Assembly: GCA_963695545.1 (NCBI GenBank)
Contig: OY968796.1
Location: 320,001 to 384,000 of the forward strand
Reading direction: 5' to 3'
Source: Terriglobia bacterium
GTDB taxonomy: Bacteria; Acidobacteriota; Terriglobia; Acidiferrales; UBA7541
DNA length: 64,000 nucleotides
The notes beneath the pieces were generated by a model that saw nothing but the letters and a program-made list of their open reading frames with translations, was not told where the DNA came from and did not search any database. Numbering within the stretch: position 1 is the first letter of the stretch; each line of letters starts with the position of its first letter. This document shows positions 23,397 through 46,115 of the stretch, one piece after another. The position numbers were made by a program, and so were the translations under genes.

Positions 23397-23503
23397 GTGT
23401 TCCTATCGTCGGAGCGCTTCGTGCCTCCAGGCGGAACGCAATACCTCGCCGCAGTCGCTTCAAATCCCTCGCCAAATCCTCTCGCGTCGCCGAAAAAACG
23501 CCC

Positions 23504-23585
23504 TAACCCTTCTAGAATGACCAGTTCTGAGAAATCGCATTTTAACCTCTCTAGAATCAACACTTCTGGCGCAAAGGACTTAAAG
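23504..23585 (+). repeat. Left part of a 39-bp-period degenerate repeat array interrupted by the IS
   Basis: AACCCTTCTAGAATGACCAGTTCTG and AACCTCTCTAGAATCAACACTTCTG; the third unit continues at 26842. Confidence 0.7.
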
Positions 23586-23646
23586 GGCGATTATGTACTT
23601 GACAAAGTAACGCGATTCAGGTAGTCTCTGTGTCAGTGAGGCTGCC

Positions 23647-24630
23647 ATGAACCTGATAGACGTAACCCGAAAGTTCGCCACGAAAGAAGCCTGCAACGAA
23701 TACCTAGCCGCGATGCGCTGGCCGAATGGCGTCACATGCACTCATTGCGGCGTTGTCGGCGACGATCAATTCCGCTCGTTCACCACGCGCGAGACTGAGC
23801 GCAAGCGGTACAGCAAGCGCAAGAAGGCTGTTGTTACGGTCAAGGTTCCGTCGCGCAGCCTGTACGAGTGCAAGGGCTGCGGCTATCAATTCAGCGCGAC
23901 CACGGGCACGGTGTTCCATGATTCGCACTTGCCGCTGGAAAAGTGGTTCATGGCGATTGCGTTGATTCTGGAAGCGAAGAAAGGAATCAGCGCATTGCAG
24001 GTCTGCCGCAATCTTGGAATCCCTGAGAGTAGCTACCGGACGGTCTGGTATCTCTGCCATCGCATCCGTGAAGCCACGCAAGAGACCGGCCTGCTATCCG
24101 GCATCGTTGAGACCGACGAGACCTACCTGACACCGAAGAAGCCGCGCAAGGGAGCGCCGAAAGTGAAGAAAGAAAAACGCGACGTGGTACTTGGCATGAT
24201 CGAGCGCGGCGGCAGGCTGCGAATGGTTCCGATGCGCGACGCGAAGATGGAGATAATCGAACCCATCCTTGCGAAGCACATCGCGCCCGACGCCACGCTA
24301 CAAACTGACGAACACCCGACCTACGCGATAATCGGGAAGCGCCGTTTTCCCGGCAGGCATCGCGCGATCAACCACAGCCAGTCCTACGGGATTGGCGACA
24401 ACACAACCAACTCGATTGAGAATGCGTTCTCGCTGTTAAAGCGCGGCGTCTATGGGACGTTCCACAAGGTCTCGATAAAGCACCTTGGCCGCTATTGCAA
24501 CGAGTTTTCCTACAGGTTCAATCGGCGCGGGAATCAGTCGGAGATGTTCGGCGAGACCGTGAAGGGATTGCTAAACAACGGGCCGCTGCCGCTCAAGAAG
24601 CTGACTGCTTCCGAAACATCGGAGACTTAG
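23647..24630 (+). CDS. IS1595 family transposase
   Basis: RWPNG..CTHC...CKGC zinc ribbon, IVETDETY / LQTDE / TNSIE catalytic motifs, YCNEFSYRFNRR; promoter TTGACA-17-TAGTCT partly inside TIR-L. Confidence 0.95.
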   Translation: MNLIDVTRKFATKEACNEYLAAMRWPNGVTCTHCGVVGDDQFRSFTTRETERKRYSKRKKAVVTVKVPSRSLYECKGCGYQFSATTGTVFHDSHLPLEKWFMAIALILEAKKGISALQVCRNLGIPESSYRTVWYLCHRIREATQETGLLSGIVETDETYLTPKKPRKGAPKVKKEKRDVVLGMIERGGRLRMVPMRDAKMEIIEPILAKHIAPDATLQTDEHPTYAIIGKRRFPGRHRAINHSQSYGIGDNTTNSIENAFSLLKRGVYGTFHKVSIKHLGRYCNEFSYRFNRRGNQSEMFGETVKGLLNNGPLPLKKLTASETSET

Positions 24631-24742
24631 AACCGCGCTTTCCAGAAGTTTTTATCTCGCTCTGTGGCTTTGGCTTTGAGCCGAGCAATGCGGAGAGTAC
24701 CGCGTCGAACTTCTTCTTCTCGACAAGTACCCTTTTCTTCAT
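24593..24742 (-). CDS. 49-aa basic protein convergent with, and overlapping, the transposase 3' end
   Basis: MKKRVLVEKKKFDAVLSALLGSKPKPQSEIKTSGKRGSKSPMFRKQSAS; extended -10 TGCTACGAT 6 nt before ATG (leaderless). Confidence 0.6.
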   Translation of the reverse strand: MKKRVLVEKKKFDAVLSALLGSKPKPQSEIKTSGKRGSKSPMFRKQSAS

Positions 24743-24768
24743 GGGTGAATCGTAGCATAATTGCTTAG

Positions 24769-24860
24769 CGGGGCCGGAAGGATTCGGACCTTCGGAACGT
24801 GCCTTAACACGTTTCGCCCGATTATAAGTCGGGTGCTTTAAACCACTCAGCCACGGCCCC
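24769..24860 (-). tRNA. Atypical class II tRNA: Ser-type body with UAU (Ile/AUA) anticodon, no encoded CCA
   Basis: Acceptor GGGGCCG/CGGCCCC, G73; D-arm GCTGAGTGGTTTAAAGC; anticodon arm CCCGA-CTTATAA-TCGGG; V-arm AACGTGT-TAAG-GCACGTT; T-arm GAAGG-TCCGAAT-CCTTC. Confidence 0.85.
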
Positions 24861-24869
24861 GCTAAGCAA

Positions 24870-24974
24870 TCAAGTGCGCCCGCCCCGGTAAGGAAACGGG
24901 CGCACCTTTGAAAAGTCTAAGTTGAAAACTGGTGGCGGTCGTGCTATAAAGGAGACCAACCGTAGGCGCATCAT
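24870..24974 (-). CDS. Putative 34-aa leader peptide directly upstream of the tRNA(UAU)
   Basis: AAAGGAGG RBS; MMRLRLVSFIARPPPVFNLDFSKVRPFPYRGGRT; Ile10 is encoded by ATA; the stop abuts the tRNA precursor stem. Confidence 0.5.
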   Translation of the reverse strand: MMRLRLVSFIARPPPVFNLDFSKVRPFPYRGGRT

Positions 24975-25021
24975 CGCGCCTCCTTTCGTGAACATCGACA
25001 GTCGCTAAGGGATAGGTTCTA

Positions 25022-25053
25022 GGGGTAAGAGAGGTTACAGCCTCTCTTACCCC
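25022..25053. other. Strong hairpin between the 138-aa ORF and the leader ORF
   Basis: GGGGTAAGAGAGG-TTACAG-CCTCTCTTACCCC, 13-bp perfect stem without a clear U-tract. Confidence 0.6.
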
Positions 25054-25068
25054 GCTTCTACTTATGGT

Positions 25069-25485
25069 TCATTTAGTCCGTTTCCCCACAAACCCTACAG
25101 CAAGAAGGGGCTGTTTGTTTGCTTGAAGGTGCTCTTCGGGTATTTCGGCAACAAACATGGATTCCGATTCGTCCCACTTAGCAGGATACGATCGAGACTC
25201 AGACCGGTCATAGCCGATGTAGTCCATGAAAGTCTTGGCTGAAAATCCAGCACCGTTTCCCTTCTTCCCGTATGCCAAGGCATAAGCGCGGGAGTCTTTC
25301 TTACTGATCGGGCGAACTCCCAACTGATGCTTGGCTGCATCCCACATCAGCAGAACATACTCAACGGCGTCCTTTTCGAGGATTGCCGTGGCAGATTTGT
25401 TGAATGCTAGACGGCCTAGCTTGTTAAAGGTAACATTAGGGCTGCCACTCCGACGTACTCTGCGCGTGAAAATCTCCCAACTCAT
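25069..25485 (-). CDS. Hypothetical 138-aa protein (IS passenger)
   Basis: AGGAGG RBS; upstream TTGACA-19-TATAAT with extended -10 (25554-25524); globular beta-rich composition. Confidence 0.8.
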   Translation of the reverse strand: MSWEIFTRRVRRSGSPNVTFNKLGRLAFNKSATAILEKDAVEYVLLMWDAAKHQLGVRPISKKDSRAYALAYGKKGNGAGFSAKTFMDYIGYDRSESRSYPAKWDESESMFVAEIPEEHLQANKQPLLAVGFVGKRTK

Positions 25486-25743
25486 CGCATTTCCCTCCTA
25501 TTCGAGAAGCATCGACAGAACAGATTATACCATACGTTACATGAGAATTGTCAATAGCAAACTTCAGAAACTCCCATTGTTTCCGGTAGCCTCAGAATAC
25601 TGCAAGCCTATCTCGCGTGTCCCTTGGTACGCGGTGAGTTTGACTTGGGAATAGTATGCCGGATACTTTCGTCTTGAAATACATTGCCGCAATCTTTTAT
25701 ATTGCGTTAGTGTAGCTATCGTAATCTGCTGATGAGAAACAAG

Positions 25744-25772
25744 TTGACTGGTTTATCTCGAATGCCTAGTAT
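25744..25772 (+). promoter_or_regulatory. Sigma70 promoter TTGACT-17-TAGTAT for the small RNA / DUF3800 transcript
   Basis: -35 at 25744-25749, -10 at 25767-25772; predicted TSS ~25779 coincides with the first base of the RNA closing stem. Confidence 0.7.
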
Positions 25773-25778
25773 ATCTGT

Positions 25779-25846
25779 GCGACTGGGCCGAGACGCTACG
25801 CGACTCTTGCAGGGCCGAACGGCCCCGCCCCAGACGCTTTTTTTTT
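25779..25846 (+). ncRNA. Candidate DUF3800-associated structured RNA (three-way junction plus U9 tract)
   Basis: Closing stem GCG-A-CTGGG/CCCAG-A-CGC; hairpins GAG-A-CGC-TAC-GCG-A-CTC and GGGCC-GAAC-GGCCC; followed by T9. Confidence 0.6.
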
Positions 25847-25888
25847 CTCGGTCAATTGCTTCCCTCGAAGAAAGCCTGAAATCCGTAA

Positions 25889-26773
25889 ATGCACCTTTGC
25901 TACATAGATGAAAGTGGCGTGCCTGAACTAAATCAAGGGACGAGTCATTTTGTGCTGCTCGGTCTATCTATCGAGGCGTGGGATTGGAGGGGTCAAGATC
26001 GCGCGGTTTCGGTCGTTAAGCGAAAGTTTGGGCTGTACGGCGCAGAGATTCATACCGGATGGATGACTAGGCGTTATCTTGAGCAGGAGAGAATCCCAAA
26101 TTTTCAATCGCTGGATCGAACTGCTCGCCAAACACAGGTAAGAAAAGAACGGGACGCGCAACTCATCAAAGAGGATGCTCTTAAGGGAAGCAAGGCCGCC
26201 AGAGAACTGCGGAAGAGCTACCGCAAGTCAGATACCTATATTCATTTGACCCTAGGGGAACGAAGGAATTGCCTACGGGAGCTTGCTGATTTGATTGGTG
26301 GGTGGGGAAACGCGCGACTTTTCTGTCATGCAATTGATAAACGCGCCTTTGGGTCAACGCCGCCTGCTAACCCACCACGAGAAGAAGCGTTCACCCACGT
26401 AGTCAGTCGCTTTGAGCGATACCTTTCGGATATAGGAGACCCGCGAACGATCGGACTCCTTGCTCATGACCATGACGATACGTCCGCAGACAGAATGACC
26501 CAATTGATGCGCCAGTTTCATTCGAGCGGAACAATGTGGACTGCCATCACAAGAATTATCGAAACCCCGTTTTTCGTGGACAGTAAATTGACGGTTGGCG
26601 TTCAGTTGGCGGACTTGTGTGCGTATGCTACTCGCCGCTACTGCGAGAAGGGCGAGACCGATTTATTTGATAGAATTTGGCCCCGATTTAACAGGGTTGG
26701 AACGAGGGTAGTCGGGTTGCGCCATTACGTCGGGGCTCGAAACTGCACCTGCCGGATTTGTACTTCACATTAG
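25889..26773 (+). CDS. DUF3800 domain protein
   Basis: N-terminal YIDESG, EIH motif and C-terminal FVDS...VQLADLCAY, the typical DUF3800 signature. Confidence 0.88.
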   Translation: MHLCYIDESGVPELNQGTSHFVLLGLSIEAWDWRGQDRAVSVVKRKFGLYGAEIHTGWMTRRYLEQERIPNFQSLDRTARQTQVRKERDAQLIKEDALKGSKAARELRKSYRKSDTYIHLTLGERRNCLRELADLIGGWGNARLFCHAIDKRAFGSTPPANPPREEAFTHVVSRFERYLSDIGDPRTIGLLAHDHDDTSADRMTQLMRQFHSSGTMWTAITRIIETPFFVDSKLTVGVQLADLCAYATRRYCEKGETDLFDRIWPRFNRVGTRVVGLRHYVGARNCTCRICTSH

Positions 26774-26841
26774 AAATACCGCCTGCCTGTCACGCCTCAA
26801 TCCTGCCGTTTGGCCGCTACTTTGTCAAATCCATATTCGCC

Positions 26842-26894
26842 CTTAAAGTCATTCAGAATCAGCACTTCTGAAAAACACCCGGGGGGGAGGGGGG
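26842..26894 (+). repeat. Right part of the interrupted repeat array (third unit plus AAAAACACCCGGGGGGGAGGGGGG tail)
   Basis: AAGTCATTCAGAATCAGCACTTCTG restores the 39-bp period when the IS and one TSD copy are removed. Confidence 0.7.
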
Positions 26895-46040: not shown

Positions 46041-46115
46041 TGGTAGCGCTAGCGGGAATCGAACCCGCATTTCGGCCTTGAAAGGGCCGCGTGCTAACCG
46101 TTGCACCATAGCGCC
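46041..46115 (-). tRNA. tRNA-Glu(UUC)
   Basis: Cloverleaf with CGGCC-CTTTCAA-GGCCG anticodon arm, GGTTCGATTCC T-arm and encoded CCA. Confidence 0.93.

Follow-up and report, generated by a model that had tools for sequence, protein, structure and literature searches.

A single tRNA can gate the expression of genes that contain a rare codon, as does the bldA tRNA-Leu(UAA) of Streptomyces, a cognate tRNA encoded on the chromosome that leaves the amino acid of its codon unchanged. The tRNA described here would likewise make one tRNA a gate, but it is borne by a mobile element and would not be cognate. In body and anticodon, the closest described system is the allo-tRNA(UAU) of Mukai et al. (PMC5389517; for this and all other papers cited we refer to the accessible parts of the text), which folds with an 8/4 branch and is encoded near transposon genes. 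In E. coli, six amber variants of it gave no suppression with Ser, and two proved lethal (PMC5389517). A natural dual identity, with body and anticodon in disagreement and deliberate mistranslation, has also been described for tRNA-ProX of Streptomyces and Kitasatospora (PMC10404621), although that tRNA concerns Pro, lies beside a dedicated ProRS isoform, and is described without a mobile element or an adapted client gene. Like the tRNA studied here, the tRNA-Ile(UAU) of Mycoplasma mobile and of Bacillus subtilis tilS suppressors carries U34, with which it reads AUA, and weakly AUG, on its own ribosomes (PMC3575796, PMC3919564); however, it is charged with Ile in cells without tilS, whereas the host here has TilS, three CAT tRNAs and a Trp-type IleRS. 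In the stop-recoded phages of Borges et al. (bioRxiv 10.1101/2021.08.26.457843), the suppressor tRNA of a mobile element recodes the element's own genes in a host with the standard code, and a switch has been proposed; here, in contrast, a sense codon is concerned, an insertion sequence of 3 kb serves as carrier, and only two to seven codons per gene are affected. Element-specific codes have been described for phages and stop codons, whereas here a small insertion sequence appears to alter the reading of a sense codon for its own genes in a standard-code host. Among the papers listed by our searches of the open full-text literature, we found no report of an insertion sequence that recodes a sense codon.

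The family described below shares with allo-tRNA(UAU) (PMC5389517) the long variable arm, G73, the UAU anticodon, an origin in Acidobacteria and soil, and neighbouring transposon and toxin-antitoxin genes, but it folds 7/5 and has a Ser-type D arm. Of the general allo-tRNA traits it has the long variable arm, a discriminator of the G73 or U73 type and a non-Ser anticodon, while the 8/4 or 9/3 branch and the tRNA-Sec-like long D stem with a tetraloop are absent. The acceptor motif of the family has no occurrence in the accessible part of the supplement of PMC5389517, and no link to IS1595 is reported in the accessible text of Mukai et al. (PMC5389517). Neither this 7/5 family nor any codon adaptation is described there or in the accessible text of the review PMC7609411. 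Three 8/4 or 8/4-like UAU tRNAs were found beside sister IS1595 transposases. A search with an 8/4 allo-tRNA pattern gave 118 viral matches and matched one of 251 genomes, and none of these fit the allo-tRNA template or adjoin the IS1595 transposase.

The tRNA gene and the IS1595 element that carries it

In the window, the whole stretch of 64,000 nucleotides that was analysed, the tRNA gene occupies 24769..24860 on the minus strand, with a Ser body, a UAU anticodon at 24826-24824, G73, and an end that reads CUA rather than CCA. The earlier note had described a 7/5 fold, the loop CU-UAU-AA, G73, a 7-bp variable stem, a Ser-like D arm, the T loop UCCGAAU with C55, and the lack of CCA, and all of these are present in the sequence; the D arm has a 3-bp stem and an 11-nt loop, and the variable stem has seven pairs with one bulged A. 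ARAGORN labels the gene tRNA-Ile(tat), and its Rfam RF00005 score of 60.8 bits lies above the gathering score (29). The 141-nt precursor folds with z = -4.4, and none of 200 shuffles folds as well. Within the precursor span (24758..24872, minus strand), base pairing between the 5' leader (24861-24872) and N73 plus the trailer (24769-24758) extends the acceptor stem by 12 pairs, compared with 0-5 pairs in 89 other copies. In the window copy the trailer repeats the leader as its reverse complement, whereby CCA was turned into CUA, and a template-switch mutation would explain the origin of both. With its CUA end and over-paired precursor, the window copy may be partly disabled and mature poorly. 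The possibility that the anticodon loop serves as a -10 box was rejected, because the sixth base is variable and a matching -35 box is missing. In a public metatranscriptome, 9% of words were present and contigs covered 7 of 30 bins; one 234-nt contig (depth 4.6) matches 24778-25011 with two differences, but this match was not counted as evidence because strand, ends and transcription are not readable from contigs. An ordinary tRNA-Glu(TTC) is also present in the window at 46041-46115.

The gene lies in an IS1595-family element with passengers (3256 bp, 23586..26841, plus strand), delimited by inverted repeats and empty sites. If the target duplication is taken as 5 bp, each end of the element may be 1 nt further outward. 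The left terminal inverted repeat (23586..23612, plus strand), 85% complementary over 39 nt including flank, pairs with the right one (26815..26841, minus strand). A 7-bp target-site duplication (left copy 23579..23585, right copy 26842..26848, plus strand) was deduced from empty copies of the dispersed host repeat hit by the element; in the IS1595 family 8 bp is typical. The terminal repeats, the target duplication and a transposase with Zn-ribbon and DDE_Tnp_IS1595 domains place the element in this family. The transposase (327 aa, 23647..24630, plus strand; Pfam PF12762 and PF12760) contains ATA at codons 4 (23656), 203 (24253), 228 (24328) and 277 (24475), and the tRNA gene lies antisense just behind it. 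Directly behind the tRNA gene, a conserved basic ORF of 49 aa (24593..24742, minus strand) with ATA at codon 30 overlaps the transposase stop and matches no Pfam family. Between the two, a candidate extended -10-like box was read from the sequence (24749..24757, minus strand), and it recurs in most family loci. Just upstream of the tRNA gene ends a 34-codon ORF with a strong Shine-Dalgarno sequence and one ATA (24870..24986, minus strand), found in a small subfamily of a handful of loci. It is a candidate AUA-sensing leader peptide, although the same stretch is promoter-like on the other strand. There, a putative antisense unit (24922..25053, plus strand), with a -35/-10-like promoter at 24922-24950 (17-nt spacer, also read from sequence and not picked up by the promoter scan) and a hairpin terminator at 25022..25053, faces the ribosome-binding site of the 34-codon ORF.

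The remaining passengers are a 138-aa gene that matches no Pfam family (25069..25485, minus strand) and a DUF3800 gene of 294 aa (25889..26773, plus strand). Codon 6 of the latter is ATA (25904-25906), next to a conserved DE motif, at a hydrophobic position where Ser would harm. The insertion site (23499-23585 and 26842-26894) belongs to a dispersed repeat, of which the host has over a dozen copies, and another IS1595 at about C1:245300 of the source genome has apparently hit the same repeat type. A further IS1595 element of this genome, outside the window (C1:2003285-2007330), has a transposase 93% identical to that of the window and, 2.9 kb downstream of it, a UAU tRNA whose long-arm body is different and which lacks CCA. 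This element contains an IS1-like transposase, a HARE-HTH gene and an odd tRNA-like sequence, and its right end was not found.

Conservation and identity of the tRNA family

By BLAST the tRNA gene was found in 5 of 60 relatives. A pattern built from the T arm and acceptor end, which set no condition on the anticodon, had matches in 19 of the 401 genomes searched in the order, the source genome included, compared with none of the 401 for the reversed control, and also two viral contigs and at least 120 metagenome stretches, some of them unrelated. A covariance model run over 100 of these sources gave 96 hits, of which the two weakest and duplicates were dropped, leaving 88 distinct copies among the matches listed. 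Their anticodons are UAU in 80, UGU, CAU and CUU in two each, and UAC and UUU in one each. In the alignment, which was fitted to the covariance model, 96.8% of cells are paired (none of 500 shuffles reached as high), with 99.5% and 99.3% for the 7/5 stems. Two-sided changes occur in 20 of 27 pairs and all stems covary, including all five pairs of the anticodon stem, which the pattern did not constrain. The earlier note had regarded a variable anticodon together with a lack of stem covariation as the signs of a decayed pseudogene, and the family displays neither. CCA is encoded in 63 of the 88 copies and absent from 25, against which the CUA end of the window copy is to be set. The counts of G73 and C55 among pattern hits are circular, G73 having been fixed by the search pattern; in the six closest loci that were instead anchored on the transposase and have downstream sequence, a UAU tRNA with G73 is present in all six and C55 in four.

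The position of the gene is fixed as well, with the transposase antisense within 1.4 kb of the tRNA in 38 of the 46 loci whose flank is long enough; the closest transposase relatives are from Acidobacteriota, save one Saccharimonadales bin. Upstream passengers vary: among 111 proteins scanned of 140 listed there were 16 HARE-HTH proteins, 20 XRE repressors, two IrrE fusions and one SocA/Panacea antitoxin, and no conserved antitoxin partner was seen among these neighbours. At L065, L069, L111, L131 and L145, the upstream genes include RelE/HigB-like ones, with one weak Gp49 hit, that adjoin XRE repressors and are rich in ATA; in the set of such genes (n=8), ATA makes up 22 of 62 Ile codons, mostly at hydrophobic columns. 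The copies with Lys anticodons (UUU at L105:775-860; CUU at L113:175-270 and L150:3431-3526) lack the downstream small ORF and are possibly repurposed. Tandem pairs of a family or sister tRNA with other long-arm or odd tRNAs (UGC, UUA and GCA loops) occur at L002:1635-1728, L006:1365-1450, L080, L088, L233 and L234, and resemble published irregular polycistrons. In nine distinct copies (L080, L092, L093, L112, L118, L123, L125, L136 and L078), the end reads G73-U-CCA with C or U at -1, so that an 8/5 fold with U73 would be allowed.

Identity as tRNA-Ile depends on A73 and a class I body, the body type that the tRNA-Ile(UAU) of Mycoplasma mobile and B. subtilis also has; the family has G73 and a long variable region instead. 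Of the minor Ile pairs, C4:G69 is present in 3, U12:A23 in 5 and C29:G41 in 27 of 88 copies, and the window copy has both U12:A23 and C29:G41. The orientation rule for the Ser variable arm is one unpaired base before the T stem, and such a base stands 3' of the variable arm in 85 of 88 copies (variable region 18-26 nt); it is likewise found in all four host tRNA-Ser, but also in two of the four host tRNA-Leu folds examined. The anticodon plays no part in recognition as Ser, which relies on acceptor pairs, G73 and the variable arm (PMC9976931). G73, G1:C72 and G2:C71 are present in the family, G2:C71 in 88/88, and C11:G24 in 86/88 and an 11-nt D loop in 78/88 copies were also found. When the family model was run on the phylum (151 genomes), the best hits outside the family that we examined (n=29) comprised 28 ordinary tRNA-Ser and one other UAU tRNA. 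By these elements the tRNA body of the family is of Ser type. Family genes are annotated as tRNA-Ile, and the translations of their transposases show Ile at positions that may be Ser.

The host genome (4.16 Mb, 60.6% GC) has a normal tRNA set, with four ordinary tRNA-Ser, tRNA-Ile(GAT) and three CAT tRNAs, and 47 of its 54 tRNA calls end in CCA. Its genes include TilS, SerRS (serS), one IleRS and two PolyA_pol-family genes. In E. coli IleRS, W905 limits UAU recognition (PMC3575796), and the host IleRS keeps the Trp at this position, in CERCW. Since SerRS ignores the anticodon and the IleRS is Trp-type, a Ser body would be a simple route to a charged UAU tRNA in this host. ATA occurs at least once in 59% of 2710 host ORFs, and within codons 2-6 in 3% of host ORFs. 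A host-wide codon reassignment was rejected, as host ATA behaves as Ile: it aligns with I/V/L like ATC, with Ser opposite 23 of 1149 ATA compared with 194 of 11625 ATC.

ATA codons in the genes of the element

For codon use we compared a lineage of 43 transposase genes (41 at >=45% identity plus L202 and L204), 42 of which have a long-arm tRNA nearby and one of which is at a contig end, with three sister genes accompanied by the 8/4 or 8/4-like UAU tRNAs, 22 near relatives that lack a UAU tRNA within 1.5 kb (12 of them checked to about 8 kb), and 16 distant relatives. Columns were classed as hydrophobic or polar from outgroups alone, and the tree is a quick tree only. The results are not materially affected when L077 (G245) and L212 (G065), two loci from unpublished genomes, are omitted; the other counts include one locus from each of these genomes.

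Codon 4 of the transposase is ATA in all 43 genes and, among 53 invariant columns other than Met and Trp, it is the sole column with a single codon. ATA occurs 4.19 times per transposase gene (range 2-7) compared with 1.14 in relatives, a 3.7-fold enrichment seen in frame only and at equal GC. A DNA motif as the cause of these sites was rejected, because the neighbouring codons, including those around codon 4, vary and out-of-frame ATA is not enriched. The placement of ATA also differs. In the lineage, ATA/ATY counts are 9/374 at hydrophobic and 108/75 at polar columns, compared with 9/201 and 1/21 in near relatives without the tRNA and 27/95 and 10/36 in distant relatives. The sister genes give 0/27 and 11/2, partly at other sites. 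No such shift from hydrophobic to polar columns was seen for the controls GTA and CTA. The buried Ile columns 104, 107, 140, 241 and 257 have ATA in 0-1 of 43 genes. At residue 203, the alternatives to ATA are Ser in nine genes and Thr in two, with no ATY (near relatives: T13, A4, S3), residue 244 is Ser in most outgroups, and ATA swaps with Ser at both 203 and 244; residue 277 is A, E, T or V. On the tree, exchanges between ATA and Ser account for 11 of 83 changes (13%) in the lineage compared with 0 of 87 in relatives, though two base changes are needed, and the synonymous share of ATA changes is 0.11 compared with 0.33.

Masked profiles gave Ile a score of -3.6 at lineage ATA sites and +13.5 in outgroups, whereas ATG, ATC and ATT sites of the same genes behave normally. 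The top residues at lineage ATA sites are K, M/T and T/Q, above Ser, which is often so for true Ser codons as well, and the outgroup profile at these sites is nearest to A, V, I and T, then S. As the transposase genes are related, the counts overstate independence; per distinct column, the ATA test gives p = 0.012. Some ATA sites look Ile-preferring: in the transposase these are codon 4 and column 89, and in the small ORF codon 30. Of the 22 near relatives, 13 have I or V at codon 4, and seven ATA fall in a conserved I/V column. In the small ORF, ATA makes up 93 of 127 Ile codons, and codon 30 is ATA in 49 of 55, with L (3), V (2) and I (1) as the alternatives. One gene, L218, has ATA at codon 4 without any tRNA within about 8 kb. 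A code valid for the whole element was rejected, as five sets of passenger genes gave no Ser signal. Taken together, the alignments show that ATA in this lineage is not used as an ordinary Ile codon, while the protein data cannot single out Ser. Because of this, and because of the Ile-preferring ATA sites, an ambiguous Ser/Ile reading fits better than full reassignment.

Proposed explanation, its rivals and a second transposon family

A conserved Ser-type tRNA(UAU) has a fixed place in this element, and ATA placement unlike Ile use is found only in the elements that carry the tRNA. We consider it fairly probable that this tRNA is a Ser-charged AUA decoder, which creates a local, Ser/Ile-ambiguous code gating transposase expression and has become fixed in a lineage of IS1595 elements from Acidobacteriota. 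Judged from its identity elements, the tRNA would be charged with Ser by the host SerRS, which is blind to the anticodon, and would read AUA without lysidine or an IleRS that accepts U34. While the tRNA is expressed, AUA would be Ser in competition with the lysidine tRNA-Ile2 of the host. The two core genes are built for such a reading: most ATA codons of the transposase occupy positions where a small polar residue is tolerated or preferred, and almost none a buried Ile column. In output or in activity, both the transposase and the small ORF would then track the tRNA's own controlled promoter, the host code being unchanged, and for the window copy the second UAU tRNA of the genome could act in trans. 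The earlier note had predicted a missense tRNA inserting Ser at AUA, a reading that the Ser-type body, fixed anticodon, covarying stems and Ser-compatible transposase ATA support indirectly but independently. The misreading of AUG that it had thought possible finds no such support, as ATG sites of the same genes fit Met, the log-likelihood of Ser being -11 per column and -48.9 weighted. If the proposal is true, it adds a new way to control transposition and gives a testable role to the most abundant and unexplained class of allo-tRNA. More tentatively, and with some doubt, it is possible that the transposase is active only with Ser at AUA, in which case the insertion sequence would license its own movement by a private lock-and-key code and allo-tRNA(UAU) genes would be other keys.

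An alternative that we regard as unlikely is a mistranslation toxin, acting as an addiction module or as an abortive defence against AUA-rich invaders, with the transposase pattern arising from self-immunity and from ATA trapped as an extra Ser codon. More than half of the host ORFs contain ATA, Ser-inserting allo-tRNAs killed E. coli (PMC5389517), and the neighbours include XRE repressors, IrrE fusions and the SocA/Panacea antitoxin; the antisense promoter and terminator facing the upstream ORF in the window copy, and the varied anticodons without matching codon adaptation of the long-arm tRNAs in a second transposon family (described below), would also suit a toxin. However, immunity predicts loss of ATA, yet ATA is enriched, fixed at codon 4 and prevalent at codon 30 of the small ORF, and the scanned neighbours show no conserved antitoxin partner. 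The Ile-preferring sites suggest a different alternative, negative autoregulation, where Ser at AUA codons that require Ile (transposase codon 4, small ORF codon 30) would inactivate the products, so that more copies lead to less transposition. The I/V at codon 4 of near relatives, the L/V/I alternatives in the small ORF, and ATA at two hydrophobic columns in the UAU copy of the second family agree with it; nevertheless, we judge it improbable, as ATA shuns the buried Ile columns where Ser would be most harmful and swaps with Ser at 203 and 244.

There is a slim chance that the tRNA does not translate at all and is a mimic or decoy, either uncharged or charged but undelivered, for example a bait for an anticodon nuclease or a blocker of AUA. 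C55 is common and CCA is often absent, and the amber variants of the 8/4 allo-tRNA(UAU) were inactive in E. coli, for which its authors suggested non-translational roles (PMC5389517), but the 7/5 family keeps all canonical stems, and a mimic gives no reason for the shift of ATA from hydrophobic to polar columns, which is confined to elements that carry the tRNA. The UAU-A37-A38 loop fits tRNA-Ile, as do U12:A23 and C29:G41 of the window copy, and the element genes are rich in ATA, so an Ile-charged supplementary tRNA aiding rare AUA codons of foreign genes has also to be weighed. Phage ileZ is such a supplementary Ile tRNA for rare AUA codons. Here this seems very improbable in view of G73, the long Ser-type arm, the rarity of C4:G69 and the Trp-type host IleRS; moreover, an AUA read as Ile should exchange freely with ATC and ATT, contrary to the low synonymous share. 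A decayed pseudogene or chance feature is barely credible, and conceivable for the window copy only, which ends in CUA and has an over-paired precursor; for the family it is refuted by covariation, anticodon conservation and fixed position, and the absence of reversed-control matches speaks against chance.

Irregular tRNAs were also found just upstream of the transposase in an unrelated transposon family with SWIM and DDE_Tnp_1 domains (L397-L399 of G632, L400-L412), at 8 of 12 loci. Seven are long-arm tRNAs, with the anticodons UAU, UUA, UAA (twice), CAA, CCA and GCA, the last three assigned by eye. Three copies of the UAU element, each 2.5 kb long and 99.9-100% identical, occur in one genome. 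Codon purging as immunity was rejected for this family, since TTA, CTA and TCA vanish together from the transposases, and this joint loss is due to an open antisense frame. Such an in-register antisense frame, with 0-1 stops, runs through seven transposase genes (L400, L403, L404, L408, L409, L411 and L412), compared with 9-16 antisense stops in five transposases of the family without a long-arm tRNA. In L399, the antisense ORF is 649 aa long.
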